Shown here piece after piece: positions 5,326 to 51,028 of a stretch of 56,522 nucleotides of DNA. This DNA is from Candidatus Zixiibacteriota bacterium. GTDB taxonomy: Bacteria > RBG-13-66-14 > B26-G2 > WVWN01. Each line of letters opens with the position of its first letter. Position 1 is the stretch's first letter. The stretch lies in NCBI GenBank assembly GCA_050117845.1, contig JASFLY010000017.1:1-56522 (forward strand). Reading direction: 5' to 3'. The translations under genes were made by a program, and so were the position numbers. A model generated the notes under the pieces. The model was given only the letters and a program-made list of their open reading frames with translations, was not told where the DNA came from and did no database searches.

Positions 5326-5351
5326 ACGGCCATTTGCGAAAGGAGCCGCCG

Positions 5352-5729: not shown

Positions 5730-5847
5730 TATAGTAGGGCGCGTCGCGCCGGCCGGCCTCGGGCTGGCCGCGCTTCCTCGCAGGCGAGGGGTTGCGGCCC
5801 CTCGTTTTGTTTAAGGAGCCCGGCGCCGCCCTCCACGGAGGACCCGA

Positions 5848-7200: not shown

Positions 7201-7221
7201 AGGAGGGACGCGGGGGAGGAT

Positions 7222-8226: not shown

Positions 8227-8264
8227 CGGCCTTAAAGGCGTAAAGAAGGAGAGCGGGGGAGGAA

Positions 8265-9095: not shown

Positions 9096-9586
9096 AAATC
9101 GCAACCATAGTAATGGGGGTAATCGTCGCGATCCTGATTGGCGTCGCGATATGGCGGGGCGAAGGTTCCTTGCAGAAGGGCCTTACCTTCGGCGGCAAGA
9201 CCTTCCTGAGTACGTTGCCGCTGCTCGTTTTCGCCTTCGCGATAGCCGGCCTGGTGCAGGTCCTGGTGCCGCGCGAGTTCATCGTAAAGTGGTTGGGTGA
9301 AGGGTCGGGGATTAAAGGCATTTTAATAGCGACGGTCGTGGGCGGCCTGACGCCCGGCGGCCCCTACGTCTCGTTCCCCATCGTGGCCTCGCTGTACAAG
9401 GCCGGCGCGTCGGTGGGGACGGTGGTGGCCTTCGTGACGTCGTGGTCGGTATGGGCCTTCAACCGCCTCCCTTTGGAGATAGGACTGGTCGGCCCCAAAC
9501 TCGCGATCGCCCGTTTCCTGACGACGCTCATCGTCCCGCCGCTCGCGGGCCTGTTCGCGCAGGCCGTGTTCGGCCGGTGGCTCTAA
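9092..9586 (+). CDS. small polytopic membrane protein, putative permease (DUF318/ArsP-like half-size)
   Basis: Four or more hydrophobic helices. The GGLTPGGPYVSFPIVASLYKAG motif resembles predicted-permease families. Overlaps the upstream stop (ATGA). Confidence 0.4.
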   Translation: MKIATIVMGVIVAILIGVAIWRGEGSLQKGLTFGGKTFLSTLPLLVFAFAIAGLVQVLVPREFIVKWLGEGSGIKGILIATVVGGLTPGGPYVSFPIVASLYKAGASVGTVVAFVTSWSVWAFNRLPLEIGLVGPKLAIARFLTTLIVPPLAGLFAQAVFGRWL

Positions 9587-9607
9587 TCGTTCCTTGCGGA
9601 GTGACGT

Positions 9608-11071
9608 ATGAATTTCGAATATCGTAACATCTTCGAAGTCCCCGGCGGCCCGGCGTTCCGGGTGGGCCGGACGGATACCCCCGACGTTAAACCCGAGGAG
9701 TTCTTCCCGAAAGAGTTCCTGCGGACGGACCTGGGGCCGATGGCCGACCACGCCGAGGGCGAGGTCGTCCGGCACTACACCCGGCTGGCGGCGATGAACT
9801 TCGGCGTCGATTCCGGCTTCTATCCCCTCGGGTCCTGCACCATGAAGTACAACCCCAAAATAAACGAGGAAGCGGCGCGCCTGCCCGGCTTCGCTAACCT
9901 GCACCCCTACGCCACGCCCCGGGACGCGGCGGGAGCGCTGCGCCTGATGTACGAACTCGAGCGCGACCTCTCCGAGATATGCGGCATGGCGGCCTTCACG
10001 CTCTGCCCGGCGGCCGGGGCCCACGGCGAACTCGTGGGGATGCTCATGGCCCGGGCGTACCACCGGGCGAACGGCGGCGACGGCCGCAACGTCATGCTTA
10101 TCCCCGACTCGGCCCACGGGACCAACCCCGCGTCGGCCCGGATGGTGGGCTTCGACGTCGTATCGGTGAAGTCGACCGACGAGGGTCTCATCGACCTCGA
10201 CGACCTCAAATCCAAATTGGACGACCGCGTCGCCGGCATGATGATAACGAACCCGAATACGCTGGGCCTCTTCGAGCGCGACATCCTGGAGATTGCGAAG
10301 CTCGTGCACGGGGCCGGCGGCCTGCTCTACTACGACGGCGCGAACCTGAACGCCATCGTGGGCCGCGCCCGCCCCGGCGACATGGGTTTCGACATCTGCC
10401 ACGTCAACCTGCATAAAACGTTCTCGACGCCGCACGGCGGCGGCGGCCCGGGCTCCGGGCCCGTCGGCGTCTCCGCCCGGCTGGTCGATTTCCTCCCGGT
10501 CCCGCGCGTCGTCAAGGAAGGCGACGGCTACGGTTGGGCCGAGGCCTGCCCGAAGTCCATAGGCCGGATCCGTTCCTTCGCCGGGAACTTCGGCGTGCTC
10601 GTCAAAGCCTACACGTATATACGGAACCTCGGCGCGGCGGGTCTCAGGAACGTGGCCGAGGCTGCGGTGCTGAACGCCAACTACCTCCGGGCCCGGGTGG
10701 CCGAGTTCCTGGAAGTGGCTGGCTCCGCCCCCTGCATGCACGAGTTCGTGGCGTCGTCGGAGAAGTTCGGCCGCGGTTCCGCCGGGGATATAGACAAGGC
10801 ACTGATAGACGCCGGCTACCACCCGCCGACGACTTACTTCCCGCTGGTGGTGCACGAGGCGCTCATGATCGAGCCGACCGAGACCGAATCCCGCGAGACG
10901 CTGGACGCCTTCGCGGATACGCTCGCGGCTATCGTGGCCGAGATGGAGAAGGACCCGCACGCCTACGCCGACGCGCCGCTGTTGGCGCCGGTGCGGCGTC
11001 TCGACGAGGCCGGGGCCGCCCGCAACCCCGTCCTCACGCAGATGATGGCCGAGGCGGCGGGCGAAGAGTAA
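9608..11071 (+). CDS. gcvPB: glycine dehydrogenase (decarboxylating) subunit 2
   Basis: HYTRLAAMNFGVDSGFYPLGSCTMKYNP ... SAHGTNPASA are the PLP-binding-half motifs of the P protein. Confidence 0.9.
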   Translation: MNFEYRNIFEVPGGPAFRVGRTDTPDVKPEEFFPKEFLRTDLGPMADHAEGEVVRHYTRLAAMNFGVDSGFYPLGSCTMKYNPKINEEAARLPGFANLHPYATPRDAAGALRLMYELERDLSEICGMAAFTLCPAAGAHGELVGMLMARAYHRANGGDGRNVMLIPDSAHGTNPASARMVGFDVVSVKSTDEGLIDLDDLKSKLDDRVAGMMITNPNTLGLFERDILEIAKLVHGAGGLLYYDGANLNAIVGRARPGDMGFDICHVNLHKTFSTPHGGGGPGSGPVGVSARLVDFLPVPRVVKEGDGYGWAEACPKSIGRIRSFAGNFGVLVKAYTYIRNLGAAGLRNVAEAAVLNANYLRARVAEFLEVAGSAPCMHEFVASSEKFGRGSAGDIDKALIDAGYHPPTTYFPLVVHEALMIEPTETESRETLDAFADTLAAIVAEMEKDPHAYADAPLLAPVRRLDEAGAARNPVLTQMMAEAAGEE

Positions 11072-11075
11072 GGCC

Positions 11076-11741
11076 GTGGCGGACTGGAGCGGGTACCGCT
11101 TGATAGTCGACGGCCCGGGCGAGGCGCGGGAGAACATGGCCCGGGACGAGGCCCTGCTGGCGGCCTACCGGGCCGGGGAGATTCCGCCCACGTGGCGGCT
11201 CTACACCTGGCGGGAGCCGGCGGTCACGTACGGCCGGTCCCAGGAAGCGCCGGCGTGGCCCGCCGAGGTAACCGTGTTGCCCCGGGTGAGCGGCGGCGGT
11301 TACGTCCCCCACGGCGCGGACTTCACGTACTGCGTCGTGCGGGAGCGGCGGACCGGTTTCAGCAATTACGAGGACATCGTGGCCGCGGTGGCCGCGGCGC
11401 TGGCGGAGTTAGGCGTTCCGGCGGACGTGTGGCGGAGCGGCCCGGCGGGCGCGGCGGGTCGTTGTTTCGCGTCGCTCGCGCCCTTCGACGTCCACGTCAA
11501 GGGCAGGAAGATAGCGGGTTGCGCCCAGCGCCGTTTCCGCGACGCGATACTGCATCACGGCTCGATTGCGGCGGCGGTTCCGGCCCCGGCCTTGCGCGAC
11601 CTCGGCCTCTGGGACGAGCGGCGAACGGTAACTCTGGAATCCATCGCCGGCCGAAGCGTCGAATTGGCGGAGTTCGCCGAGGCGCTGGCGGCGATTACGG
11701 GTATGCAAATAACTCCGGTTTCAAGCGCAGAGGATAAGTAA
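11076..11741 (+). CDS. lipoate-protein ligase / octanoyltransferase family protein (LplA/LipM-like catalytic domain)
   Basis: YRLIVDGPGEARENMARDEALL resembles the LplA N-terminus. Has the BPL/LplA/LipB-type domain. Sits in the GcvH context. Confidence 0.65.
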   Translation: MADWSGYRLIVDGPGEARENMARDEALLAAYRAGEIPPTWRLYTWREPAVTYGRSQEAPAWPAEVTVLPRVSGGGYVPHGADFTYCVVRERRTGFSNYEDIVAAVAAALAELGVPADVWRSGPAGAAGRCFASLAPFDVHVKGRKIAGCAQRRFRDAILHHGSIAAAVPAPALRDLGLWDERRTVTLESIAGRSVELAEFAEALAAITGMQITPVSSAEDK

Positions 11742-11743
11742 TT

Positions 11744-12655
11744 ATGAAAATAAAAAAAGTGATACTCTCGGGATGCGCGCTAATAATCGTAGCGGCCCTC
11801 GTCGGATGCGGCAAGGGACAGGCCCCCGAGCCCGAGGTAGTGGCCCGCGTGGGCGACGCCGTCCTTACGCTGGACGAACTCAACCGGCTGGACGAGGACC
11901 AGCATCGCGTAAAGATGCCGACCTACCTCACCAAAGAGGAGCTGATGGAGGAGTGGATTCGCAGCGAGGTCCTCTACCAGAACGCGGTGGAGGAGGGCGT
12001 TCCGGAGGAGAAGGAATGCGCCTGGCGGATCCGCAACAGCGCCAAGGGGATCGTCATCCAGCGGTACTGGGAACTCAACGTCTACGAAAAAAAGGCCGAA
12101 GTCAGCGACGAGGAAGCCCTGGCCTGGTACGAGGATAATAAAGAAAAAAGCTACCGGGCCAAGGAAACCGGCGTCTGGCTGAGGCGGATACTCCTTAATT
12201 CCGAAGGGGCGGCCGCCGACGTTTTGGCGCGTATCGGTAAGGGCGAGGACTTCGCCGCCGTGGCCTTGGACGTTTCGGTTACGCCCGAAAAGCTGAAAGG
12301 CGGAGACCTGGGATATCGGCGCCTGGGCGACGTCAGCCCGACTTACCGGGACGCCGTCGGGAAGATGAAGGAGGGCGAGGTCGCCGGGCCGTTCCGCCTC
12401 GGTCAATTCTACGCCGTATTGAAATTGGAAGACCGGGTGGATGCGGGCGATTACCTGAAGCCCGAGGGCATCGGGATGGAAAGCCTGCGCGATAAGGCGA
12501 AGGTCGAGATGTGGCGCGAGAAGGCGGCCCGCATCGCCGCGGACCTCGGCGCCGCGGCGGACGTCGAACGTCACCCGGAGCGGATCCCCGAGCCGGCCGT
12601 GGATATGGCGTTGGGGGAGGATCTTAAACCGGGGACCGCCGAAAAGGGCGAATAG
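11744..12655 (+). CDS. lipoprotein with parvulin-type peptidyl-prolyl isomerase domain (PrsA/SurA-like)
   Basis: Lipobox LVGC. The LKGGDLGYRRLGDVSPTYRDAV ... GEVAGPF segment resembles the PpiC/rotamase domain. Confidence 0.6.
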   Translation: MKIKKVILSGCALIIVAALVGCGKGQAPEPEVVARVGDAVLTLDELNRLDEDQHRVKMPTYLTKEELMEEWIRSEVLYQNAVEEGVPEEKECAWRIRNSAKGIVIQRYWELNVYEKKAEVSDEEALAWYEDNKEKSYRAKETGVWLRRILLNSEGAAADVLARIGKGEDFAAVALDVSVTPEKLKGGDLGYRRLGDVSPTYRDAVGKMKEGEVAGPFRLGQFYAVLKLEDRVDAGDYLKPEGIGMESLRDKAKVEMWREKAARIAADLGAAADVERHPERIPEPAVDMALGEDLKPGTAEKGE

Positions 12656-14128
12656 ATGGACCGAGACCTCGGATCGATTCAGGAAGCGCGCGATTGTATC
12701 CGGGCCGGCCGCAAGGCCGCGGAGGCGTTCGCGCACTTCGGCCAGGAGGCCGTCGACCGTATAGTCGCGGCCATGGCGCGTGCGGCCGAAGAGGCCGCCG
12801 TCCCCCTGGCGGAATCGGCGGCCGAGGAAACGGCCTTCGGCGTCGCCCGGGATAAAATACAGAAAAACCTCTTCGCGGCGCGCAACGTATACGAGTACAT
12901 AAAGGATATAAAGACCTGCGACGTAATCGCGGACGACCCGGCGACCGGCGTCACCGAGATAGCGAGCCCCGTGGGCCTCATCGCCGGCATAACGCCTACG
13001 ACCAACCCCACGTCGACGACCATATATAAAGCGCTGATTTCGGTAAAAGCGCGGAACGCGGTAGTTTTCTCGCCGCACCCGGCGGCGCTGCGCTGCTCGG
13101 GAGAGGCGGCCGCGATATTGGCCCGGGCCGCGACGGCCGCGGGAGCGCCCGAGGGCGTAATAACGTGGTTGACGCAGCCCACGGCCGAGGCCGCCGAGGA
13201 GTTAATGCGGCACCGCGACGTGGACCTTATCCTCGCGACCGGCGGGATGGCGATGGTGCGGGCGGCGTACTCCTCCGGGAAGCCGGCGTACGGCGTCGGT
13301 CCGGGGAACGTCCCTGCCTATATCGACCGCTCGGCCGACGTGCCGCGGGCCGTCGCCGACATCATATCGTCCAAAACGTTCGACAACGGCGTCATCTGCG
13401 CGTCGGAGCAGGCGGTGGTTTGCGACGCGCCGGCGCGGGACGAGGCGACCCGGGAATTCGAGCGGGGCGGCGCGGCCTTCCTCTCGGCCGAACAGAAACG
13501 CGCGGTCGCGAAAGTCCTCGACGGCGGCGGCCGCCTCAACCCGGCGGTCGTGGGGCAGCCGGCGAGCCGCATCGCCGAGATGGCCGGCTTCGCCGTCCCG
13601 GCGGGCACGAAGCTTTTAATCGGATACGAGGACCGGGTGGGCCCGGACTTCCCGTTCTCCTGGGAGAAGATATCGCCCGTGCTGGCCTGGTACGATACTA
13701 CCGACTGGAAGGCCGGGTGCGAGCGCTGCATGGAAATCCTGGCGTACGGTGGCATGGGGCATACGCTCTCGCTGCACGCGCGCGACGAGGAGGTCATCCG
13801 CGAGTTCGGCCTCCGCAAGCCCGTCTACCGCGTCGTCGTCAACACGCCCTCCTCCCAGGGCGCCATCGGCCTTACGACGGGCCTCGCGCCGGCGCTGACG
13901 CTCGGCTGCGGGACGTTGGGCGGCAATATCACGTCGGACAACATTACGCCCCGGCACCTCATGCACGTCAAGCGCGTGGCCCGGGGACGGGCGCCGGTTA
14001 CTCCCGAGAGTACGGCTTGCCCGGCGGTCGAAGGCGGCGACTCGCCCTGCGGCGGCACGGCCGACCCGGTCCTGGTGGAAAAGATAGTACGGGAGGTCCT
14101 CCGGGAATTGGGAAAAGGGGCGAGTTAG
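12656..14128 (+). CDS. CoA-acylating aldehyde dehydrogenase (EutE/PduP/AdhE-N family), BMC core enzyme with C-terminal encapsulation-peptide-like helix
   Basis: SKTFDNGVICASEQAVV catalytic-Cys motif of acetylating ALDHs. C-terminal DPVLVEKIVREVLRELGK amphipathic helix follows a low-complexity linker. Confidence 0.85.
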   Translation: MDRDLGSIQEARDCIRAGRKAAEAFAHFGQEAVDRIVAAMARAAEEAAVPLAESAAEETAFGVARDKIQKNLFAARNVYEYIKDIKTCDVIADDPATGVTEIASPVGLIAGITPTTNPTSTTIYKALISVKARNAVVFSPHPAALRCSGEAAAILARAATAAGAPEGVITWLTQPTAEAAEELMRHRDVDLILATGGMAMVRAAYSSGKPAYGVGPGNVPAYIDRSADVPRAVADIISSKTFDNGVICASEQAVVCDAPARDEATREFERGGAAFLSAEQKRAVAKVLDGGGRLNPAVVGQPASRIAEMAGFAVPAGTKLLIGYEDRVGPDFPFSWEKISPVLAWYDTTDWKAGCERCMEILAYGGMGHTLSLHARDEEVIREFGLRKPVYRVVVNTPSSQGAIGLTTGLAPALTLGCGTLGGNITSDNITPRHLMHVKRVARGRAPVTPESTACPAVEGGDSPCGGTADPVLVEKIVREVLRELGKGAS

Positions 14129-14620
14129 ATGGTCCTCTTCGTACGCCGCATCGTCGACGCGTTCCGAAGACGGCCCCTGGATTTGCACGTTTTCTGCCTG
14201 GTCCTCTTCATGATCGGCGCCGTTTTCGTCTTCGGGTACCAGGTGCGCGTCTTTTGGGAGGTCGTGATTACGGACCGGACGCCCCTGGAGGGGACGCCCG
14301 TCTTCCAGGCGCTCACCGGCATGACGCTGTTGACCGACCTGGTGTGGTCGCCGTTTCTCGTGGCTTCGTCGATAGGTATCTGGCTGTACCGGAACTGGGG
14401 CCGCAAGCTCGGTTTCATCATCGGCGGCGTCATGGCCTATATGGGGACGCAGGGGCTGCTATTCTTCCCGCTGACGCGCCGCTTCGGCGTCGACGCGGTG
14501 GAGGACTTCACTCGCTATTACGAATTCACGGCCTATATGGCCTACTACGCAATTTACGCGGCCGTCGGGTTCACGATGATATTTTACCTCTGGTTCCGAA
14601 AAATAGACTTGAGCCGGTAG
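14129..14620 (+). CDS. hypothetical 4-TM integral membrane protein embedded in the BMC locus
   Basis: Four hydrophobic helices and aromatic-rich. No family recognised. Confidence 0.5.
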   Translation: MVLFVRRIVDAFRRRPLDLHVFCLVLFMIGAVFVFGYQVRVFWEVVITDRTPLEGTPVFQALTGMTLLTDLVWSPFLVASSIGIWLYRNWGRKLGFIIGGVMAYMGTQGLLFFPLTRRFGVDAVEDFTRYYEFTAYMAYYAIYAAVGFTMIFYLWFRKIDLSR

Positions 14621-14676
14621 CATTTATTTGATAAATAGCGTTAAACGTATTCATACCATACGCGAAAGGAGCGAGG

Positions 14677-14976
14677 ATGCCCTCTAAAACGGAGATGGCC
14701 CTCGGAATGGTGGAAACGCGGGGCCTCGTGGCCGCAATCGAAGCGGCGGACGCGATGGTCAAGGCGGCGAACGTTCGACTCTTGGACAAGGTGCGGGTCG
14801 GCGGCGGCCTCGTAACCGTACTGGTGCGCGGCGAGACCGGCGCGGTCAAGGCCGCGACGGAGGCCGGCGCGGCGGCGGCGGCCAAGGTCGGCGAACTCGT
14901 ATCGGTCCACGTTATCCCGCGGCCCGACGACCACGTGGAATTTATACTCCCGGAAGAAGTCGGGAAAAAAGGCTAA
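14677..14976 (+). CDS. BMC shell protein, single-domain hexamer type (BMC-H, PduA/EutM-like)
   Basis: [29 protein letters not shown] is the canonical PF00936 BMC-domain signature. AGGAG RBS. Confidence 0.9.
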
Positions 14977-14995
14977 GCGGGGAAAACGTTAAGAC

Positions 14996-15823
14996 ATGGC
15001 CGCGGACGACCATGAAGCCGTTGTACGGGCTGTAACCGCGGCGGTGATGGCGAAGCTGGGGGCCGGCGGGCCTCGGACTTTCGAGGCGCCGGTGGGCGTT
15101 TCCGGCCCCCACATTCACCTGACGCCCGGGGACGTGGCGACGCTGTTCGGCGCCGGCGCGCGTTTGTCGGTAATGAGGCCGCTGGTGCAATGCGGCCAGT
15201 TCGCGGCGAACGAAGCGGTGACTATCGTCGGGCCGGCTTCGTCGCTTTCCGGCGTTCGCGTGGTCGGCCCGACGCGCGAGAGCACGGTGGCGGAACTTCT
15301 GGCGGGGGACCTGGTGCGGCTCGGCCTGGACCCGGACGTACGGGCGGGCGAGCCGTTCGCCGTTACCGTCGCGGGACCCGCGGGCGTCGTCCACCTTCCG
15401 GCGGGGGGCGTCGTGGCCCGGCGGCACCTCCACGTCCCGGCGGCCAGGGCCGGAGAATTGGGCGTGACGGACGGGATGGACGTCTCCGCGCGGATGGGTG
15501 CGCCGGGGCGGCGGGTTACGTTCCACGACGTCCTGGTGCGCGTGAGCCCGGAGGCCGGCCTGGAACTCCACGTCGACCGGGAGGAGGCCAACGCTTGCGG
15601 CGTCCGGACGGGAGCCGCGGCCGAGATCGTGATGGGCGCGGCCGTTCCCGCGGCGAGCGGGGTGCCGGCGAAAACGGCCGGAAGGCCCCTCGTAACCGAG
15701 GAAGACGTCGTGCGGGCCCACGCGGAAGGCCGGGAGCCCCGGCTGGCGGGCGCCATTCTTACGCCTTACGCCCGGGACGCCGTCCGTAAATTATTCCCGG
15801 AGTTGCTTAACTTTTTAGAATGA
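14996..15823 (+). CDS. phosphate acyltransferase PduL/EutD-type (phosphotransacylase of metabolosomes)
   Basis: Two PduL repeats: VGVSGPHIHLTPGDVATLFG and VVARRHLHVPAARAGELGV. N-terminal EAVVRAVTAAVMAKLG is amphipathic and encapsulation-peptide-like. Confidence 0.8.
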   Translation: MAADDHEAVVRAVTAAVMAKLGAGGPRTFEAPVGVSGPHIHLTPGDVATLFGAGARLSVMRPLVQCGQFAANEAVTIVGPASSLSGVRVVGPTRESTVAELLAGDLVRLGLDPDVRAGEPFAVTVAGPAGVVHLPAGGVVARRHLHVPAARAGELGVTDGMDVSARMGAPGRRVTFHDVLVRVSPEAGLELHVDREEANACGVRTGAAAEIVMGAAVPAASGVPAKTAGRPLVTEEDVVRAHAEGREPRLAGAILTPYARDAVRKLFPELLNFLE

Positions 15824-15946
15824 GTTATAATCCTATAAGGAAAGAAACATAATGAACGGGACCGGGGCCGGTTCCGCTAACGCGCGACGCGGCCTCCGGC
15901 GCATACGGCCGACGCGTAGGCCGGTTTATTATTGGGGTTCGATACG

Positions 15947-16219
15947 ATGATGCGGATCGCGGAAGTGGTGGGCAACGTGTGGGCGACGCGCAAGGTTGAA
16001 AGCGTGCGCTCTCTCAAGATGCTGCTCGTTCGACCCTTGAACGCCGACCTAAAACCGACCGACGAAATGTGGGTCGCGGCGGACGTGGTGGACGCCGGCG
16101 CCGGCGACCGGGTCATCGTCGCCGTAGGCCGGGCGGCCCGGCTGGCGGTGGGCGACGACGACGCGGCCGTATCCGCGGCCGTTGTAGGCGTCGTGGACTC
16201 GCACGAGGTGAAGGCGTAA
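15947..16219 (+). CDS. BMC vertex protein (BMC-P, EutN/CcmL/PduN family)
   Basis: MMRIAEVVGNVWATRK N-terminus and ~90-aa size are typical of PF03319 pentamer proteins. Confidence 0.8.
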   Translation: MMRIAEVVGNVWATRKVESVRSLKMLLVRPLNADLKPTDEMWVAADVVDAGAGDRVIVAVGRAARLAVGDDDAAVSAAVVGVVDSHEVKA

Positions 16220-16226
16220 CGGCCCG

Positions 16227-17537
16227 ATGACCTTCGTCGAGACCATTAGAAACGCCGGAATCCTGGGGGCCGGGGGAGCCGGCTTCCCGGCTCACGTGAA
16301 GTACGGCCGGGAGGCCGAGATACTTATTATTAACGGTGCGGAGTGCGAACCCCTCTCCCGCAAGGACGCGGCCATCCTGGCCCACCGGGCCGCCGACGTA
16401 GTAACCGCGGCCGGTACGTTGCGGGAGGAACTCCGGGCCCGGGAAGTAATCCTGGCGGTCAAGGGGCCCGCGGCGACCGAAATAAGCGGCCTTTACGGCG
16501 GCGTCAGGATACACCCTTTGCCGGAGGTGTATCCCGCCGGCGACGAGGCCGTCCTGGTATACGAGGTGGCGGGCCGTCGCGTTCCGGCCGACGGCGTTCC
16601 GCCCGACGTGGGCGTCGTTGTCTCGAACGTCGAGACGGTGCTCAACGTCGCCCGGGCGGGCCGGGGAGCGCCGGTGCTCACGACCTGGGTGACGGTGGCG
16701 GGGGCGGTGCGCGAGCCCTTCACCGCGGAGGTTCCGGTCGGGACGGGCGCGCGTTTTCTCATAGACGAGGCGGGCGGCCCCGCGGTCGCCGATTACGTCG
16801 TCTTTGAGGGGGGACCGATGATGGGCGAGGAGGTGGACCCGGCCTCGTTCGGCGTCGGGCCCACGACCGGTTTGATCCTCGTCCTGCCGGCGGGCCATCC
16901 GGTGGTGGCGCGAAACCGCCTGCCGCTCGAGCACGTACGGACCATCGCCGGTAGCGCCTGCACGCAGTGCCGCGACTGCACCGAGATGTGCCCGCGGTAC
17001 CTCCTGGGCTACGACGTTACGCCCCACCTTTCGATGCGGCGCTTCTTCAGTTGGGGCGACGACGCCGCGGCCGCGGGGGAGTTTTTCGCGAACGCCGCCG
17101 GCTGTACCGGCTGCGGCCTTTGCGAATTGTACGCCTGCCCGATGGCCATATCGCCTCGTCGCGTCCAGCTTCACTTGCGGGAAATCGTAACGGCGGCGAG
17201 GGCCGAAGGGGCCGGCGAGGTGCACGCCGACCGTTCGGGGCGGCAGGTCCCGGCGGGGCGGCTCAAGAAGCGCATAGAAGTGGACGAGTACGACCGGCCG
17301 GCGCCGCTGCGGGAACTCGCCGAGGCGCCCCGGACGGTGACGATAAAGCTGGTTCAACCGTACGCCGGCGCGCTCGACGTACTCGTGCGGGAGGGGGACC
17401 GCGTGGAAGCGGGGCAGGTTCTGGCGAAGCCGAAAGAGGGCGACGACCGGGCCGTACCGGCGTACGCGAGCATCGGCGGCCGGGTGGCCGCGGCCGGCCC
17501 GGGCGAAGTGACGATAGACCGAACGCAGGTGGCCTAA
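16227..17537 (+). CDS. RnfC/PduS-like Fe-S flavoprotein (SLBB + NADH-binding motif + two 4Fe-4S clusters)
   Basis: GILGAGGAGFPAHVKY is the RnfC/NuoF/PduS motif. Cys clusters CTQCRDCTEMCP and CTGCGLCELYACP. Confidence 0.75.
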   Translation: MTFVETIRNAGILGAGGAGFPAHVKYGREAEILIINGAECEPLSRKDAAILAHRAADVVTAAGTLREELRAREVILAVKGPAATEISGLYGGVRIHPLPEVYPAGDEAVLVYEVAGRRVPADGVPPDVGVVVSNVETVLNVARAGRGAPVLTTWVTVAGAVREPFTAEVPVGTGARFLIDEAGGPAVADYVVFEGGPMMGEEVDPASFGVGPTTGLILVLPAGHPVVARNRLPLEHVRTIAGSACTQCRDCTEMCPRYLLGYDVTPHLSMRRFFSWGDDAAAAGEFFANAAGCTGCGLCELYACPMAISPRRVQLHLREIVTAARAEGAGEVHADRSGRQVPAGRLKKRIEVDEYDRPAPLRELAEAPRTVTIKLVQPYAGALDVLVREGDRVEAGQVLAKPKEGDDRAVPAYASIGGRVAAAGPGEVTIDRTQVA

Positions 17538-17564
17538 CGCGTTGCGGTTAAGGAGATGTTGGCG

Positions 17565-18275
17565 ATGATAAGGAAAACGGCGATAATGCTGCTGGCGCTC
17601 GCGACGTTCGCGGCGGTAGGGTGGGCCGACTACGAGAAGCCGGACCTCGAGAAAGCGGACATCGACAAGGACGACCTCGCCCGTTTCAAGGAGGCGTACA
17701 CCCGCTACCTCGAGGGCGTCGAGTTCGAAAAGGAAGGGTCCTGGGTGTCGGCGAGCAAGTCGTACCGCGCGGCGGTGGATATTTACAATAACTATCCGGA
17801 CGCGCAGTACGGCCTGGGCCGGATGGCCCTGCGGCTGGGCCGCCTCGACGAGGCGGAGGATGCTTTGCGGGAAGCCCTTACCCTCAAGCCCGAACTGCAC
17901 CAGGCCCACACCGAACTCGGCAGCGTGCATTACCGGCGCGGCGATTACAATAAAGCTGCGTTCGAATATAAGGAAGCGCTCAAGCACGACTCGAGCGACG
18001 TCGTGGCCCGCTACAACCTGGGTAACGCATACCGGAACCTGGACAAGCCCAAGAACGCGATCGACCAGTACGAAAAGACGCTCGCGCTCGACGCTTCTTA
18101 CGTGGACTGTTACTACAACATGGCGCTGGCCTACGAGGACCTGGAAGACGCGGACAAGGCCATCACGGCGTACGACAGGTTCATAGAGGCGGCGCGGGAC
18201 GACCCCGATCAGGCCGAGTGGGTAAATCGGGCGAAAGAGTATAAACAGAAATTATTGGACGAGAAGGGTAAATAG
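17565..18275 (+). CDS. TPR-repeat protein, probably lipo/secreted, inside the BMC locus
   Basis: Signal-like IMLLALATFAAVGW. Multiple 34-aa TPR units (AQYGLGRMALRLGRLDEAE, AHTELGSVHYRRGDY, ARYNLGNAYRNLDK, CYYNMALAYEDL). The first ATG (17556) lacks RBS spacing, so the second was chosen. Confidence 0.65.
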   Translation: MIRKTAIMLLALATFAAVGWADYEKPDLEKADIDKDDLARFKEAYTRYLEGVEFEKEGSWVSASKSYRAAVDIYNNYPDAQYGLGRMALRLGRLDEAEDALREALTLKPELHQAHTELGSVHYRRGDYNKAAFEYKEALKHDSSDVVARYNLGNAYRNLDKPKNAIDQYEKTLALDASYVDCYYNMALAYEDLEDADKAITAYDRFIEAARDDPDQAEWVNRAKEYKQKLLDEKGK

Positions 18276-18833
18276 TTGACGCTGCCGGAAGAGGCCATCG
18301 GCCTGGTCGAGTTCTCATCCATCGCCCGGGGCATCGAAGCCGTGGACGCGATGGTGAAGGAGGCGGACGTCCGGCTGCTGGCGGCGCGGACGGCGTGCTC
18401 CGGCAAGTACATCGGCCTCGTGGCCGGGGCGGTCGCGGCGGTGAAATCGGCGGTGAGCGCCGGCAAGGATATGGGGCGAGGGCATTACGTAGACGGTTTG
18501 GTAATCCCGAACGTGCACAAACAGGTCCTGGCCGCGGCGGCCGGGACGGTGGAAGTACCCGAAAAGGGGGCCCTGGGGATAATCGAGACGTTTTCGCTGG
18601 CGTCCGCCCTTTTGGCGGCGGACGCGGCGGTGAAGGCCGCGCCGGTGACGCTTCTGGAAGTGCGCCTCGGCACGGGCATAGGCGGTAAAGGTTTCGCCAC
18701 GCTGGTGGGCGAGACGGCGGCGGTAACGTCGGCCGTGGGCGCGGGCGCTCGAGAGGCGTCGGCCCGGGGCCTTCTGGTCGCGACCGCGGTAATCCCGGCT
18801 CCGTACCGGGAAGTGATGGATAAACTCATATAA
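18276..18833 (+). CDS. tandem-domain BMC shell protein (BMC-T, PduT-like)
   Basis: Two BMC domains: IGLVEFSSIARGIEAVDAMVKEADVRLL and LGIIETFSLASALLAADAAVKAAPVTLLEV. TTG start assumed. Confidence 0.75.
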   Translation: MTLPEEAIGLVEFSSIARGIEAVDAMVKEADVRLLAARTACSGKYIGLVAGAVAAVKSAVSAGKDMGRGHYVDGLVIPNVHKQVLAAAAGTVEVPEKGALGIIETFSLASALLAADAAVKAAPVTLLEVRLGTGIGGKGFATLVGETAAVTSAVGAGAREASARGLLVATAVIPAPYREVMDKLI

Positions 18834-18859
18834 CCGGTAACTGGCGGTATGATTAAGAG

Positions 18860-19147
18860 ATGACTGTCAAGGAGATAATCAACGTAAAGGGTAAGCACCT
18901 CGGCTATTTCGAAGCCTGGTGCAAGGCGTGCGGCATTTGCATCGCGCTGTGCCCGAAACACGTCTTCGACACCGGGGCCGACGGCAAGCCCATCGTGGCC
19001 CGGCCGGCCGATTGCATAAACTGCGGCATGTGCGAAATCATGTGCCCCGATTTCGCGATAGGCTGGTACGAGGACCCGTTGTGTGACGAAGAGTTGAAAG
19101 AGGCTCACAAACGCAGTGGCGACGACGAGTGGGCCAAGCACCGCTAA
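18860..19147 (+). CDS. 2-oxoacid:ferredoxin oxidoreductase delta subunit (2x[4Fe-4S] ferredoxin)
   Basis: CKACGICIALCP and CINCGMCEIMCP motifs in a ~95-aa protein immediately upstream of the alpha subunit. Confidence 0.75.
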   Translation: MTVKEIINVKGKHLGYFEAWCKACGICIALCPKHVFDTGADGKPIVARPADCINCGMCEIMCPDFAIGWYEDPLCDEELKEAHKRSGDDEWAKHR

Positions 19148-19189
19148 CCAATCGTTCTTAACTCCGTTCATAAGGTAGCGTGCAGTAAA

Positions 19190-20323
19190 ATGACCTTGAT
19201 GCAAGGGAACGAGGCGATTGCCCGGGCGGCGTTGGACGCCGGCGTGCGTTTTTTCGCCGGTTATCCGATAACGCCCTCGACGGAGATCGCCGAAATCATG
19301 TCGGTGGAACTCCCCAAGGTAGGCGGGAAGTTCCTTCAGATGGAGGACGAGATAGCGTCGCTGGCCGCGGTCATCGGCGCCTCTCTCACCGGGGCGCGGG
19401 CCATGACGGCCACGAGCGGCCCCGGCTTCTCTCTCATGCAGGAGAACCTCGGCTACGCGTACATGACCGAGGTTCCTTGTTTAATCGTTAACGTAATGCG
19501 GGGCGGCCCCAGCACCGGCCTTCCCACCGGCCCGTCCCAGGGCGACGTTATGCAGGCGCGCTGGGGTACCCACGGCGACCATCCGGCCATTTCGCTGGTG
19601 CCGTCGTCCGTCCTCGATTGCTACAAGCAGACCGTGCGGGCCATTAACCTGGCCGAACGTTTCCGGATGCCCGTCATACTCCTGCCGGACGAGGTGGTGG
19701 CCCACATGCGCGAGGACGTGACCCTGCCCGACCACGCCGACGTCGTCCCCCGCGCCGAACCGGAAGTCCCGTACGAGTGGTACAACCCGTACGACGACTC
19801 CACGACCGACGTGGCGCCGCTCGCGTCTTTCGGGACGGGGTTCCGCTTCCACGTCACCGGCCTGGTGCACGACCGGGCGGGCTTCGCCACAACGGTGCCG
19901 GCGGAAGTCGACCGGGCGATACGCAATCTCAAACGCAAGATGGACCGTTTCCGCAAGGAGATAATACAGGTGGAGCGCCTGCACCTGGCCGACGCCGACA
20001 TCGTCGTCGCGGCCTACGGCATCTGCGCCCGTTCCGCCGAGGCGGCCACGCTCAAGGCCCGCGAGAAGGGCTACCGTGTCGGCTGCATCAATATGAAGAC
20101 CGTATGGCCGTTCTGCTTCAAACTCATCCAGCGCGTGGCACAGACGGCCCGGGCGATAATCGTCCCGGAGATGAACCTCGGCCAGCTCGTGCGCGAGTTC
20201 GAACGCGCCGTATGCGGCAAAACCCAGGTTATACCTCTGAACCGGGTCGACGGCGAGGCGATAACGCCGCGCCAGATTATGGACGTAATCAACGAACTCG
20301 GCCCCGGCGGAGGTGAGGCCTAA
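19190..20323 (+). CDS. 2-oxoacid:ferredoxin oxidoreductase alpha subunit
   Basis: MTLMQGNEAIARAALDAGVRFFAGYPITPSTEI ... ATSGPGFSLMQE match the KorA/PorA/OorA family. Confidence 0.85.
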   Translation: MTLMQGNEAIARAALDAGVRFFAGYPITPSTEIAEIMSVELPKVGGKFLQMEDEIASLAAVIGASLTGARAMTATSGPGFSLMQENLGYAYMTEVPCLIVNVMRGGPSTGLPTGPSQGDVMQARWGTHGDHPAISLVPSSVLDCYKQTVRAINLAERFRMPVILLPDEVVAHMREDVTLPDHADVVPRAEPEVPYEWYNPYDDSTTDVAPLASFGTGFRFHVTGLVHDRAGFATTVPAEVDRAIRNLKRKMDRFRKEIIQVERLHLADADIVVAAYGICARSAEAATLKAREKGYRVGCINMKTVWPFCFKLIQRVAQTARAIIVPEMNLGQLVREFERAVCGKTQVIPLNRVDGEAITPRQIMDVINELGPGGGEA

Positions 20324-21171
20324 TGGAGAAACCGCGCGAATTGAATCCGTCGGAACTCATGCACGAGTTCCTGCGCCATAAAAAGAAGTTCCCCCACGTG
20401 TGGTGTTCCGGCTGCGGCATCGGGACGACGATGGGCGCTATTATCCGCGCCATCGCCGATACCGAACTCGACCGCGACCGGGTCGTAATGGTCTCGGGCA
20501 TCGGCTGCAGCTCGCGTATGCCCATATACGTAGACTTCAACACGCTCCACACCACCCACGGCCGGCCCATCGCCTTCGCGACCGGCATCAAGACCGCCCG
20601 CCCCGACCTCGAGGTCATCGTGGTCACGGGCGACGGCGACGCCGCCGCCATCGGCGGCAACCACCTCATCCACGCCTGCCGGCGCAACATCAACCTCACC
20701 GTCATCTGCATCAACAACAACATCTACGGCATGACCGGCGGCCAGGCCTCGCCCACGACGCCGCCCGGCAAGTTCGCGACGACCGCCCGCTACGGCGACT
20801 TCGAGCGGGACTTCGATTTATGCGATCTGACGGCCGGGGCCGGGGCGGCCTTCGTCGCCCGCGGCGCGGTATACTACGCGAGGCAACTCCAGAAACTGAT
20901 CCAGCAAGCCCTCGTCAAGAAGGGATTCGCCTTCGTCGAGGTCGTCTCACAGTGCCCGACCTACTACGGGCGTTTTAATAAATTCAAATCGCCGGTGGAA
21001 ATGCTCTACTGGCAACGCGACAATACGGTGAACGTTAAGACGGTGGGGAAGATGAAACCGGAAGAGCTCGAAGGCAAGCTGTTAACCGGCGTCCTGGCGG
21101 ACCACGATTATCCCGAATTCACGGAGAAGTACGACAAGCTGATCCAGGATTTGGCGGCGGGGAGGAAGTAA
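20323..21171 (+). CDS. 2-oxoacid:ferredoxin oxidoreductase beta subunit (TPP-binding)
   Basis: WCSGCGIG ... VVTGDGDAAAIGGNHL ... CINNNIYGMTGGQ match the TPP/Fe-S beta-subunit motifs. The start overlaps the alpha stop. Confidence 0.85.
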   Translation: MEKPRELNPSELMHEFLRHKKKFPHVWCSGCGIGTTMGAIIRAIADTELDRDRVVMVSGIGCSSRMPIYVDFNTLHTTHGRPIAFATGIKTARPDLEVIVVTGDGDAAAIGGNHLIHACRRNINLTVICINNNIYGMTGGQASPTTPPGKFATTARYGDFERDFDLCDLTAGAGAAFVARGAVYYARQLQKLIQQALVKKGFAFVEVVSQCPTYYGRFNKFKSPVEMLYWQRDNTVNVKTVGKMKPEELEGKLLTGVLADHDYPEFTEKYDKLIQDLAAGRK

Positions 21172-21173
21172 TA

Positions 21174-21743
21174 ATGGTAGTCGTGAGATTCGCCGGATAC
21201 GGCGGCCAGGGACTCCTAACGGCCGGCCTGATACTAGCGGACGCGGCCGGCATGTATGATAAGAAAAAGGTCGTCCAGACGCAGAGTTACGGCGCCGAGG
21301 CGCGAGGGGGAGCGAGTCGCTCCGACGTCATCGTCTCCGACGAAGACATCGTATTCCCCAAGCCCGACCACCTCGACGTGCTGGTGGCCATGAACCAACT
21401 CTCGGTCGACAAGTACTCCTCGGCGTTGTCCGAGGGCGGAACGCTGATAGCCGACGCGACCTTCGTCACGACGGTTACCTTCACGAACGCGTATCTCATA
21501 CCGTTCACCGCCGTCGCCCGCGACAAGATAGGCCGGGAGATAGTCGCCAACGTCGTGGCCCTCGGGGCCCTGGTGGAGCTCGAGAAGGTCGTTTCCAAGA
21601 AAGCGGTTACGAAGGCCCTCGAGCAGCGCATCCCGCCGGGCGCCCTGGATATCAATCGCAAGGCGTTGGAGGCCGGCTTCAAGGCGGGCCGGGCTTGCGC
21701 GGCCGAGCGCGAAAAGGCGGTCGAGGACTTCGACATCGTATAG
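21174..21743 (+). CDS. 2-oxoacid:ferredoxin oxidoreductase gamma subunit
   Basis: FAGYGGQGLLTAGLILADAA ... QSYGAEARGG match the PorG/KorC/OorC family. Gene order delta-alpha-beta-gamma as in OorDABC. Confidence 0.8.
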   Translation: MVVVRFAGYGGQGLLTAGLILADAAGMYDKKKVVQTQSYGAEARGGASRSDVIVSDEDIVFPKPDHLDVLVAMNQLSVDKYSSALSEGGTLIADATFVTTVTFTNAYLIPFTAVARDKIGREIVANVVALGALVELEKVVSKKAVTKALEQRIPPGALDINRKALEAGFKAGRACAAEREKAVEDFDIV

Positions 21744-21755
21744 CGAAGGAGATTC

Positions 21756-22160
21756 ATGGAAAAAACGCTCTTCATGATCAAGCCGGACGCCACCGCCCGG
21801 GGCCTCGTCGGCGAGTTGGTCGCGCGGATGGAAAGCGAAGGTTTCACGCTGGAGCGACTAGAGCTGCAGCGTTTCGACCGCCCGCGGGCCGAGGCATTCT
21901 ACGGCGTCCATAAGGGCAAACCCTTCTTCGAGAGCCTGGTGGAATACATTACGTCGGGGCCCGTGGTGCCGATGGTCCTTTCCGGCGAGGGCGTCATAGG
22001 CCGCGTCCGGGAGATAATGGGGGCCACGAATCCGGCCGAGGCCGCGTCCGGCACGATCCGCCGGAAGTACGCCGAGTCCTTGGAGCGCAACTCGGTTCAC
22101 GGTTCGGACAGCCCGGCCTCGGCGGAGCACGAAATTCAAGTAGCCTTCGGAGGGCCGTAG
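21756..22160 (+). CDS. ndk: nucleoside diphosphate kinase
   Basis: TLFMIKPDATARGLVGELVARMESEGF ... NSVHGSDS includes the active-site His region. Confidence 0.9.
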   Translation: MEKTLFMIKPDATARGLVGELVARMESEGFTLERLELQRFDRPRAEAFYGVHKGKPFFESLVEYITSGPVVPMVLSGEGVIGRVREIMGATNPAEAASGTIRRKYAESLERNSVHGSDSPASAEHEIQVAFGGP

Positions 22161-22162
22161 GC

Positions 22163-22717
22163 ATGGCCGCGTCGCGGTGGAACCTGGCCAATCTGCTCAC
22201 GCTGTGCCGCCTGCCGCTGGCGGCGGCGGGGGCGTACTTCCTGTGGGGCCGGGAGTACCCGGGCGTGGGCGTGGCGTTCCTCGCCGCGGCGGCGCTGACC
22301 GATATTTTGGACGGCGTGGCGGCCCGAGCGCTGAATCAGATAACCGATTTCGGCAAGAAGATTGACCCTATCGCCGACAAGATATCCATCGCCGCCGTGG
22401 GCGTCGTCCTCGTCCTGCGATACGGCGTACCGTGGTGGATCTTCGCCGTCGCGGTGGCCCGGGACGTGGCGATCCTGATATCGGCCGCGATAATCATCTC
22501 GCGGCGCGAGGTGGTCGTACCGTCCAATTTCTGGGGCAAGGCCGCGGCGCTCATGATGGTGCTCTACGGCATCGCCGCCGTCGTCGCGACCGGGTCCTGG
22601 ATTACCGTAGTATTGATGTGGCTCGTGCTGGCGGCGATTATCATCTCCACCGCCTCGTACGGTTACGATTTCTACCGGGTGCTGTCCTCGGGCGCGCCCG
22701 GCCGCCGCGAGAAGTAA
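22163..22717 (+). CDS. CDP-alcohol phosphatidyltransferase family protein (PgsA-like)
   Basis: DILDGVAARALNQITDFGKKIDPIADK follows the D-G-x2-A-R-x8-G-x3-D-x3-D pattern. Multi-TM. Confidence 0.7.
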   Translation: MAASRWNLANLLTLCRLPLAAAGAYFLWGREYPGVGVAFLAAAALTDILDGVAARALNQITDFGKKIDPIADKISIAAVGVVLVLRYGVPWWIFAVAVARDVAILISAAIIISRREVVVPSNFWGKAAALMMVLYGIAAVVATGSWITVVLMWLVLAAIIISTASYGYDFYRVLSSGAPGRREK

Positions 22718-22788
22718 CGCGGCTAGGTTTTTCGTTATTTAACCGTTCATTTCATTCCACAAAGGAGTCGGGACTTTTCATGGCGTAT

Positions 22789-23616
22789 AAGATACTCGCG
22801 CGGGACGATATTACGAGCGAGTCGGTCCGTATGGTCGTCGCCGCGCCGCACGTGGCCCGAAAATGCGATCCGGGTCAGTTCATCATGTACCGGTTGGACG
22901 AACGGGGCGAACGCATCCCGCTCACTATCGCCGATTTCGACCGCGATGCCGGGACTATCACTATCATCTTCCAGAAGGTCGGGAAGAGCACCTACCATCT
23001 GGCGGAGTTCCAGGCCGGCGACGAGATTCTCGATTTCGTCGGGCCGCTGGGCCGCCATATGGACGTGGGGAAGCTCGGCACCGTGGCCTGCCTCGGCGGC
23101 GGCCTCGGCATAGCGCCCATTTACCCCAAGGTCCGCGCCCTTAAGGCGGCGGGGAACACCGTCGTGTCCGTAATCGGCGCGAGGCGCAAGGACCTCGTCA
23201 TACTCGAGGAAGAGATGCGTTCCCACAGCGACGAACTCTTCGTCACCACTGACGACGGTTCGTACGGCCTTCACGGCTTCGTCACCGACCAGCTCAAACA
23301 GCTCATCGACGAAGGCCGCAAGTTCGACGCCTGTCTCGCCGTAGGCCCCATCCCGATGATGGAAGCGGTTTGCCGACTCACGAAGGAACTCGGCCTCCCG
23401 ACTCTCGTCAGCCTCGACACCATCATGGTCGACGGGACCGGGATGTGCGGTTCCTGCCGCGTAACCGTGGCGGGCGAGACCAAGTTCGCGTGCGTGGACG
23501 GGCCGGTCTTCGACGGCCACCAGGTGGATTGGGATGAGGCGAAAGCGCGGCAGGTCCGGTACCGGCCGCAGGAGTGCCAGGCGTTGGAGAAATTCCAGAA
23601 GGAGCAGGGTCAATAA
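22789..23616 (+). CDS. nfnA: NfnA/SudB-like FAD/NAD-binding [2Fe-2S] oxidoreductase subunit
   Basis: MAYKILARDDITSESVRMVVAAP... is the ferredoxin-NADP-reductase-like fold. C-terminal CGSCRV...C cluster. Family of DHOD electron-transfer subunit / NfnA. Confidence 0.7.
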   Translation, partial: KILARDDITSESVRMVVAAPHVARKCDPGQFIMYRLDERGERIPLTIADFDRDAGTITIIFQKVGKSTYHLAEFQAGDEILDFVGPLGRHMDVGKLGTVACLGGGLGIAPIYPKVRALKAAGNTVVSVIGARRKDLVILEEEMRSHSDELFVTTDDGSYGLHGFVTDQLKQLIDEGRKFDACLAVGPIPMMEAVCRLTKELGLPTLVSLDTIMVDGTGMCGSCRVTVAGETKFACVDGPVFDGHQVDWDEAKARQVRYRPQECQALEKFQKEQGQ

Positions 23617-23618
23617 TA

Positions 23619-25046: not shown

Positions 25047-25062
25047 ATAACGCCGGGAGTTT

Positions 25063-26483: not shown

Positions 26484-26497
26484 CTTAACTAAAAACC
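26471..26497. repeat. perfect 13-bp inverted repeat (GGTTTTTAGTTAA-C-TTAACTAAAAACC) spanning the stop codon of the upstream gene
   Basis: Read directly from the sequence. AT-rich palindrome in a GC-rich context. Could be a terminator hairpin or a protein-binding site. Confidence 0.5.
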
Positions 26498-26737
26498 CGT
26501 AGGAGAGAGGCGGGTTCCCGGGAGGGGCGGCGGCGAGGGTAGGCCGGACGGTTTCAGGTATTCCGGGGGGCCGTTTCGAGGAAGGGGCCGGAGTTGAGGG
26601 AGAATGGCGCCCGGCCAACGTTCCGGGCATTCCCCGAGCGAAGTACGCTGCAACTAAGAGGCGTTCGTCCTATCGGCGAACGACGGTTTTCCGTCCCCGT
26701 ATAAGATAATGGGAGTCGGGGATCACGGGTAGGCGTT

Positions 26738-49966: not shown

Positions 49967-49990
49967 TGCCCGCGAACGGGGCGACTGGTA

Positions 49991-51025: not shown

Positions 51026-51028
51026 CGC

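Follow-up and report, generated by a model that had tools for sequence, protein, structure and literature searches.

How a bacterial microcompartment (BMC) that encapsulates an aldehyde dehydrogenase would regenerate its NAD+ with no alcohol dehydrogenase (ADH) encoded nearby is the question raised by a locus in a 56,522-nucleotide stretch of DNA, here called the window, from Candidatus Zixiibacteriota bacterium (assembly GCA_050117845.1, contig JASFLY010000017.1). The gene at positions 16227-17537 probably provides the answer. Its product is best read as a metabolosome NADH dehydrogenase (MNdh) of the PduS family, which would partner the PduT-type shell trimer whose gene is the second one downstream, and would regenerate NAD+ without an ADH. 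The two genes are:

16227-17537 (+): PduS-family flavo-iron-sulfur protein, MNdh (Pfam, RnfC alignment, motifs, AlphaFold2, Foldseek)
18276-18833 (+): PduT-type tandem BMC-T shell protein (BMC-T^SE), with a predicted [4Fe-4S] site on the trimer axis (PF00936 twice)

The open reading frame of MNdh starts with ATG and encodes 436 residues. Because the in-frame open segment opens at 16212, only five codons upstream of this ATG, the N terminus cannot be longer. The main body of the protein is made up of four Pfam domains in the order that defines MNdh: Complex1_51K (PF01512, the FMN-binding domain of Nuo51; residues 7-142, E value 1.2e-34), SLBB (PF10531; residues 155-200), a 4Fe-4S dicluster domain (Fer4_17; residues 244-308, 2e-13) and, at the C terminus, the RnfC_N barrel-sandwich domain (PF13375; residues 365-425). 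The glycine-rich FMN/NADH loop and the two tetracysteine motifs characteristic of the family are present as GAGGAGFP (residues 14-21), C245-x2-C248-x2-C251-x3-C255-P and C293-x2-C296-x2-C299-x4-C304-P. Residues G14, G16, G17, F20 and P21 and all eight cysteines are invariant in an alignment of 61 sequences with 38-72% identity, in agreement with the initial annotation, made from the DNA letters, of an RnfC/PduS-like protein with this loop and two 4Fe-4S clusters. The loop, which that annotation had described as an NADH-binding motif, is indeed present, but in the Nuo51 fold it is part of the pocket for FMN and NADH, and not an NADH-only motif. Homologues of MNdh number more than 7,200 at E≤1e-10, all of about 430-450 residues with the same four domains.

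In a sequence search of the PDB, RnfC subunits were the top matches (8AHX, 3.4e-35, followed by 9ERI and 7ZC6). MNdh aligns to RnfC in two parts, with residues 4-309 on RnfC 129-424 and residues 364-425 on the N-terminal RnfC barrel (29-87). MNdh is therefore a circular permutation of RnfC. The AlphaFold2 model, built from the 61-sequence alignment (mean pLDDT 94.3, pTM 0.93), predicts an RnfC/NuoF-like fold, with RnfC chains as the best Foldseek matches in the PDB (E 1.5e-22, TM ~0.62, rmsd ~3 Å) and NuoF next. The NCBIfam scan of MNdh matched no PduS- or MNdh-named model. An encapsulation peptide or N-terminal extension, for which the initial annotation had proposed a search, was not found on MNdh, as judged from its N-terminal length, the upstream coding room and the hydrophobic moments of its termini, which are low; the 13 residues that precede the glycine-rich loop equal the median of 119 family members. 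This agrees with the report that PduS lacks an encapsulation peptide and binds PduT directly (Ferlez 2019, PMC6325248).

The BMC-T gene begins 739 bp downstream of the MNdh gene with one gene between them, a neighbourhood in keeping with an MNdh. Its product, 185 residues long, contains two BMC domains (PF00936, Pfam) and aligns end to end with PduT-type structures (phmmer against the PDB, residues 6-181: 3NWG, 1.4e-50; 3PAC, Citrobacter freundii PduT, 1.7e-42; 3N79, Salmonella enterica PduT, 2.6e-37). It thus has both the tandem PF00936 arrangement (~185 residues) and the homology to PduT by which BMC-T^SE proteins are recognized. The sole cysteine, Cys41 (ARTAC-S-G-K-Y), is aligned to Cys38 of PduT (SKTIC-P-G-K-F), the [4Fe-4S] ligand on the trimer axis, and residues Cys41-Tyr45 are encoded at 18396-18410. 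Binding of a [4Fe-4S] cluster by the BMC-T of the window is predicted from this pore cysteine. The initial annotation had held that BMC-T lacks obvious cysteine ligands, which is wrong, and had proposed a check for a pore of the [4Fe-4S]-binding type, for which Cys41 in its C-S-G-K-Y motif is the candidate; the correction strengthens the case for electron export. The motif fits C-P/S/A-G-K/R/S-Y/F as defined in 2019 (Ferlez 2019, PMC6325248) and differs at the proline position from the narrower wording of 2024, CP(G/S)K (PMC11626177). It is kept in seven of seven related loci, or eight of eight in the lineage with the window, and the proline-to-serine change beside the ligand cysteine might tune the cluster.

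MNdh and BMC-T belong to a BMC locus, as first annotated, in which an acylating aldehyde dehydrogenase (AldDH), BMC-H, PduL, BMC-P and the tandem BMC-T are all recognized by Pfam. All genes of the locus share the + strand and are spaced 0-108 bp apart. In addition to the pair, they are:

12656-14128 (+): acylating AldDH with a putative C-terminal encapsulation peptide, the likely NADH producer (PF00171, TIGR02518)
14129-14620 (+): 163-residue hydrophobic protein of no family, whose start abuts the AldDH stop
14677-14976 (+): BMC-H shell hexamer protein (PF00936, 1e-27)
14996-15823 (+): PduL-type phosphotransacylase with a putative N-terminal encapsulation peptide, which would recycle CoA (PF06130)
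15932-16219 (+): BMC-P shell pentamer protein (PF03319, 2.4e-24)
17556-18275 (+): tetratricopeptide repeat (TPR) protein with a Sec-type signal peptide (TPR families, N-terminal hydrophobic segment)

The AldDH, an NAD+-dependent acylating enzyme of the kind that shares a locus with MNdh, contains the catalytic motif NGVICASEQ, scores 615 bits against TIGR02518 EutH_ACDH (cutoff 620) and also matches the AldDH half of AdhE. Its C terminus consists of a variable linker followed by an amphipathic helix, LVEKIVREVLRELGK, with a hydrophobic moment of 0.86, and the helix is conserved in three related loci (L082, L083 and L087). In PduL, the phosphotransacylase domain (PF06130, residues 32-203, 9.5e-48) is preceded by an N-terminal helix, EAVVRAVTAAVMAKL, that is conserved in relatives. 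From their sequences, both helices are putative encapsulation peptides, C-terminal in AldDH and N-terminal in PduL. The C terminus of PduL, 'LVTEEDV...ILTPYARDAVRKLFPEL', is likewise conserved in relatives; it forms an extension of about 45 residues beyond the phosphotransacylase domain (residues ~230-275, LVTEEDV..A...G..P.L.GAILTPYARDAVRKLFPEL), shared with L082, L083 and L087, that matches no Pfam family even at E≤1. The true start of BMC-P is probably 15947, and the identical gene in L001 was called as 90 residues. Six-frame phmmer searches of the window found no second BMC-H and no further shell gene.

That such a pair may carry electrons through a shell had been proposed before, as the initial annotation stated. 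Axen 2014 suggested that PduS/PduT may shuttle electrons across the shell and that PduS might compensate for the absent alcohol dehydrogenase in SPU loci, and Ferlez 2019 put forward the idea of electron transfer as well and gave definitions of the four-domain architecture of PduS, of the cysteine motif of PduT and of the tandem order of the two genes (PMC6325248). Experimental support came from Sutter et al. (PNAS 2024, PMC11626177), who named the pair MNdh/BMC-T^SE and reported MNdh in 2,172 loci, with 361 loci carrying the pair without an ADH and 1,725 loci carrying both. The Clostridium botulinum GRM1 pair showed NADH-driven reduction of the BMC-T^SE cluster in vitro, followed by electron paramagnetic resonance, an RnfC-like permuted fold and stepped iron-sulfur potentials of -0.147, -0.217 and -0.349 V.

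By homology to the C. botulinum pair, NADH oxidation, the direction of electron flow and a lumenal location of the enzyme can be inferred for the MNdh of the window as follows. Within the lumen, the tagged AldDH would oxidize a short-chain aldehyde to acyl-CoA, converting NAD+ to NADH, and the tagged PduL would convert the acyl-CoA to acyl-phosphate, freeing CoA. MNdh, bound to the BMC-T trimer on its lumenal side, would oxidize NADH at its FMN and take up two electrons, which would move singly through its two [4Fe-4S] clusters to the pore [4Fe-4S] cluster held by three Cys41 residues, and from there to an acceptor in the cytosol, outside the shell. NAD+ would thus be regenerated without an ADH and with no substrate lost to alcohol. 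Every prerequisite of this scheme that can be read from the genes is present. The mechanism itself is already published, and the locus is a further example of a known module. The initial suggestion that AldDH-made NADH is reoxidized by electron transfer across the shell is consistent with these prerequisites and with the published MNdh/BMC-T^SE model; its appeal to the ferredoxin-linked genes downstream did not hold up, and the accompanying ADH absence is a statement about 56 kb.

Conservation of the locus was followed in close relatives, reached via exact-protein look-ups; a peptide-pattern scan of genome contigs (for example, with IINGAECE) returned relatives of ≤42% identity, mostly Clostridia, among the matches listed. 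Two further metagenome contigs encode exactly the same MNdh protein, flanked by the same genes. Six related loci form three sub-clades:

Sub-clade A (L082, ~70% identity): gcvPA, gcvPB, lplA, ppiC, AldDH, a 166-residue protein, BMC-H, PduL, BMC-P, (AAA ATPase), PduS, TPR, BMC-T, 2-oxoacid:ferredoxin oxidoreductase (OFOR), ndk, pgsA-like, NfnAB, comF
Sub-clade B (L083, L084 and L087, 56-58%): the upstream genes and the whole BMC block with a VOC/glyoxalase gene; BMC-T is followed by mobile DNA and pta, with no OFOR or Nfn
Sub-clade C (L085 and L088, ~49%): BMC-H, PduL, BMC-P, PduS, TPR, BMC-T, a gap of 207-275 bp, then the OFOR-to-NfnAB block

From these gene orders, the conserved block of the lineage extends from AldDH to BMC-T. 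In sub-clade B its 3' boundary is marked by the mobile or defence DNA that directly follows BMC-T, either GmrSD with a methyltransferase or a Y1 transposase, and then pta (L083 13433-15393; L087 12669-13139). The VOC/glyoxalase-family gene of the same sub-clade sits between PduL and BMC-P (L083 9092-9568; L087 9091-9567), and in L082 a 577-residue AAA_15/AAA_21-type ATPase, absent from the window, lies between BMC-P and the PduS-like gene (8250-9983).

The genes for PduS and the pore-cysteine BMC-T are linked in eight of eight loci of the lineage. In a comparison set of 80 PduS loci from GTDB species genomes (L002-L081), a pore-cysteine tandem BMC-T is encoded within 1.5 kb of PduS in 72, directly adjacent to it in 69 of those 72. 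The PduS/BMC-T pair is therefore a conserved, transferable unit. One of the eight loci of the lineage, L086 (42% identity), carries a lone PduS/pore-cysteine BMC-T pair (10001-11926) that has no further BMC gene within 10 kb of it. This pair resembles the satellite modules known from the literature, and ApbE and PepSY-type membrane proteins are encoded among its neighbours.

The statement that the locus contains no ADH was upheld for the window. Among all plausible genes in its 56.5 kb, Pfam and NCBIfam recognized no member of the Fe-ADH, Zn-ADH or SDR families. A hidden Markov model of Fe-ADH, built from 18 seed ADHs that adjoin PduS homologues in other genomes (eight of them Pfam-confirmed), had no match in the six frames of the window at E≤10 and none in the eight loci of the lineage, and no ADH was found within ~10 kb of the BMC genes in the six related loci of the three sub-clades. 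In the GTDB set, AldDH lies near PduS in 60 of 80 loci, of which 15 also have an Fe-ADH in the stretch retrieved and 45 have none there; as Zn-ADHs were unscored, many contigs are truncated and there is no PduS-less control, this count is a description and not a test of substitution. With AldDH and PduL present and no ADH or signature enzyme in the window, the locus falls under the incomplete-core metabolosome (MIC) of Axen 2014, defined by shell genes and AldDH without AlcDH and/or phosphotransacylase (PTAC) and with no identifiable signature enzyme. No riboswitch that might hint at the substrate was found in the window by Rfam, where the sole match was RNase P RNA.

Several points weigh against electron export by this pair. 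For the protein of the window the reading is drawn from homology, and the lumenal location of MNdh rests on analogy because the protein has no encapsulation peptide of its own. The pore carries C-S-G-K-Y in place of the C-P-G-K-Y/F found in 71 of the 72 pore-cysteine BMC-T loci of the GTDB set. The TPR gene separates MNdh from BMC-T, whereas in the published survey BMC-T^SE is immediately adjacent in 97% of loci and two genes away in only 1.8% (PMC11626177). The activity of the compartment is uncertain because the window shows neither a signature enzyme nor a source of the aldehyde. Finally, the absence of ADH covers 56 kb of the genome, and an ADH encoded elsewhere is possible.

Directly downstream of BMC-T, the window continues with genes some of whose products might bear on the identity of the electron acceptor:

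18860-21743 (+): four-subunit OFOR, adjacent to the BMC genes and a doubtful member of their locus (Pfam, NCBIfam)
18860-19147 (+): OFOR delta
19190-20323 (+): OFOR alpha
20323-21171 (+): OFOR beta
21174-21743 (+): OFOR gamma
21756-22160 (+): ndk
22163-22717 (+): CDP-alcohol phosphatidyltransferase (pgsA-like)
22789-23616 (+): NfnA-like, adjacent, a doubtful member of the BMC locus (NF004862, 405 bits)
~23616-25046 (+): NfnB/GltD-like, adjacent, a doubtful member of the BMC locus (TIGR01316, 593 bits)
25063-25773 (+): comF-like

Pfam and NCBIfam confirm the OFOR and NfnAB-like genes (the latter at 22789-25046) that the initial annotation had listed and had taken to point to ferredoxin-linked redox chemistry. 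Were this so, the pair would link the lumen to OFOR, ferredoxin and NfnAB, either exporting electrons to a low-potential ferredoxin or importing its electrons for lumenal NADH. In favour of such a link, 26 bp separate the BMC-T stop from the start of a gene for a 2x[4Fe-4S] ferredoxin-like protein, and relatives with as little as 49% identity (L082, L085 and L088) share the gene order BMC-T, ferredoxin, OFOR, ndk, pgsA-like, NfnAB. The authors of the 2024 study, who found no specific partner, also anticipate that the acceptor is a small ferredoxin or flavodoxin (PMC11626177). However, this 95-residue ferredoxin is an OorD-type OFOR delta subunit and is lost together with OFOR from sub-clade B, which keeps the BMC genes: the OFOR block follows BMC-T in L001, L082, L085 and L088 and is absent from L083, L084 and L087. 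In sub-clade C, the gap of 207-275 bp falls between the BMC-T and ferredoxin genes. Two interleaved housekeeping genes, ndk and the phosphatidyltransferase, part the BMC genes from NfnAB, and the close spacing is not specific evidence, because all gaps from gcvPB (9608) to pgsA-like (22717) are 0-108 bp, including those of genes without a plausible BMC role; equally tight spacing ties AldDH to lplA and to a lipoprotein peptidyl-prolyl isomerase whose stop abuts the AldDH start. A terminator-like hairpin before NfnA (22704-22723, +), with six G-C pairs and a T-run directly after the phosphatidyltransferase stop, is weak evidence in the same direction, as the scan of 9000-27000 gave promoter-like and terminator-like signals at chance level (3 against 2.7 expected and 13 against 14.4, respectively). 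The OFOR subunits have no terminal extension; for this reason, and because their block is separable from the BMC genes, the idea that OFOR is cargo of the lumen, like that of BUF3 loci, was rejected. The published iron-sulfur potentials lie above typical ferredoxin potentials, so that reduction of a low-potential 2x[4Fe-4S] ferredoxin would not be favoured. Ferredoxin-coupled or reversed flow is thus an unlikely account of the pair. A quite improbable, lineage-specific version of the wiring would make the OorD-like ferredoxin the cognate cytosolic acceptor, with the compartment acting as an aldehyde:ferredoxin oxidoreductase that feeds OFOR and NfnAB. The acetyl-CoA/acetaldehyde couple has a potential of about -0.41 V and, in a sealed lumenal NAD pool, could drive NADH low enough to reduce ferredoxin; the TPR protein between the two genes and the proline-to-serine change might then be adaptations to ferredoxin coupling.

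The alternatives that leave ferredoxin aside differ in what they ask of MNdh. It could be an accessory or redundant back-up, with NAD+ recycled mainly by an ADH encoded elsewhere in the genome or by exchange of NAD(H) through shell pores. The 1,725 surveyed loci with both ADH and pair agree with this, as do the partial defects of Salmonella pduS, pduT and pduQ knock-outs, each taken singly (PMC11626177), the frequent scattering of BMC components in related candidate phyla, such as the FRAG types (PMC8217296), and the 56-kb view of the genome; set against the lack of ADH near the BMC genes across the three sub-clades and the strict retention of the pair in the lineage, a back-up role appears rather unlikely. 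The classical role of PduS, reduction of cobalamin to renew the adenosylcobalamin of a B12-dependent compartment enzyme, was the first activity of the family to be shown biochemically, for the Salmonella and Citrobacter proteins (PMC6325248), and MNdh has the SLBB domain. Both proteins of the pair are homologous to Salmonella and Citrobacter PduS and PduT of the PDU compartments, with the same PduS Pfam architecture and, in BMC-T, full-length similarity to 3PAC and 3N79 and a conserved cluster cysteine. Unlike PDU, however, the locus has no PduQ alcohol dehydrogenase, diol dehydratase, PduO or B12 genes, and a cobalamin reductase would be left without a visible client because the last three are missing. 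No B12-dependent dehydratase or lyase, PduO/EutT adenosyltransferase, cob gene or cobalamin riboswitch was found in the window, which thus lacks both the B12 signature enzyme and the adenosyltransferase that accompany PduS in the strict sense. An enzyme set of AldDH and PduL only does not need B12, and the published analysis concluded that the B12 role is not general (PMC11626177), making it very unlikely here. Least credible of all is the view that MNdh acts in the cytosol as a free RnfC-like NADH:acceptor oxidoreductase, or is a stray Rnf subunit, and that its gene lies among BMC genes by chance. The missing encapsulation peptide would suit such a protein, JGI labels most MNdh homologues 'RnfC subunit' (and one 'cobalamin reductase'), and RnfC (8AHX, 9ERI, 7ZC6) is the nearest solved relative by sequence and by predicted fold, with the same FMN/NADH site and two [4Fe-4S] clusters. 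TIGR01945 rnfC is also the best NCBIfam match of MNdh, but its score of 177.6 bits is well under the cutoff of 245.95; the barrel is at the C terminus and not, as in RnfC, at the N terminus, no rnfABDEG or other Rnf membrane-subunit family was found in the window, and a pore-cysteine BMC-T is encoded close by in nearly all loci of the GTDB set and all of the lineage. By analogy with the characterized pair, MNdh would dock to a shell protein and not, as RnfC does, to a membrane complex.

Electron export by MNdh through BMC-T^SE therefore remains the probable reading, and the comparison with named systems places the locus close to the published module. It resembles MNdh/BMC-T^SE in the four domains with a permuted C-terminal barrel, the glycine-rich FMN/NADH loop, the two tetracysteine motifs and the predicted RnfC-like fold, and also in the tandem BMC-T partner with a single pore cysteine and an AldDH in a locus without ADH (compare the 361 such loci). 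It differs in the pore motif (C-S-G-K-Y against C-P-(G/S)-K), in the conserved TPR gene that splits the pair and in the distance of its MNdh from Firmicute homologues (~35-45% identity); its host, unlike that of the characterized C. botulinum pair, is an uncultivated lineage labelled Zixibacteria. In the 2021 catalogue, pore-cysteine PduS/PduT pairs were recorded in MIC4, MIC7, MUF3, SPU1/2/7, FRAG1/6/7, ACI and HO loci (PMC8217296). Among these, FRAG7, MIC4 and MUF3 are AldDH and PTAC metabolosomes with no ADH and with a pore-cysteine pair (PMC8217296, Supplementary Data 2), and FRAG7, from Hydrogenedentes, is the closest named type, in which BMC-H, AldDh and PTAC are encoded together with the PduS-T pair. 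In contrast to these three types, the encapsulation peptide of AldDH appears to be C-terminal and EUT2-like, not N-terminal, the main locus has one BMC-P and not a triplet (separate in FRAG7), and the PF02441 flavoprotein, aldolase and acetate kinase are missing. No type of the 2021 catalogue fits exactly; the arrangement is uncatalogued, its parts are known. Zixibacteria and Coatesbacteria shell proteins, PduT-type BMC-T included, appear there only as 'fragmented (omitted)' (PMC8217296).

The value of the locus lies mainly in cataloguing: it is a complete, compact ADH-less metabolosome with an MNdh/BMC-T^SE module, from a Zixibacteria/Coatesbacteria-like uncultivated lineage whose BMC genes had entered the 2021 catalogue only as unassigned fragments. 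Its minimal set (one BMC-H, one BMC-P, one BMC-T, AldDH, PduL and MNdh) could be a template for shells with built-in recycling of NAD+ and CoA, and the lineage-specific C-S-G-K-Y motif is a natural variant for studying how a ligand-adjacent residue tunes the cluster. This motif, the TPR gene, the PduL extension and the 163-residue protein may merit a note as small lineage-specific features that leave the overall picture unchanged.

The TPR protein is 239 residues long with a predicted signal peptide, MLAMIRKTAIMLLALATFAAVGWA|D, and orthologues lie between the MNdh and BMC-T genes in L082, L083, L085, L087 and L088. It is probably not lumenal, and a protein of predicted secreted type inside a microcompartment gene block is an oddity. 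The 163-residue protein matches no Pfam or NCBIfam family, in Pfam even at E≤1. Its orthologue in L082 (166 residues) occupies the same slot, which in sub-clade B (L083 and L087) is taken by a pentapeptide-repeat protein of 611-618 residues.

Upstream, at 4222-12655 (+), gcvT, gcvPA, gcvPB, lplA and a lipoprotein PpiC-type peptidyl-prolyl isomerase run into AldDH with gaps of 0-4 bp. The order gcvPA-gcvPB-lplA-ppiC-AldDH is kept in L082, L083 and L087, and in the window gcvPA and gcvPB are interrupted by two ExbD-like paralogues (7222-8226 and 8265-9095) and a short ArsP-like permease (9092-9586). Elsewhere in the window are a full-length class A RNase P RNA (39974-40366, +; Rfam RF00010, 264.8 bits) and a gene for the selenocysteine-specific elongation factor SelB (43492-45426, +); tRNA genes were not found in the window. 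A cluster of outer-membrane and lipid A genes at 49427-54084 (+), comprising ompH, lpxD, a fused lpxC-fabZ (51029-52363), lpxA and an lpxI-like gene, indicates a diderm host, and the nearest named relatives of the phosphoglycerate kinase (PGK) encoded in the window are from Ca. Coatesbacteria, at 59% identity.

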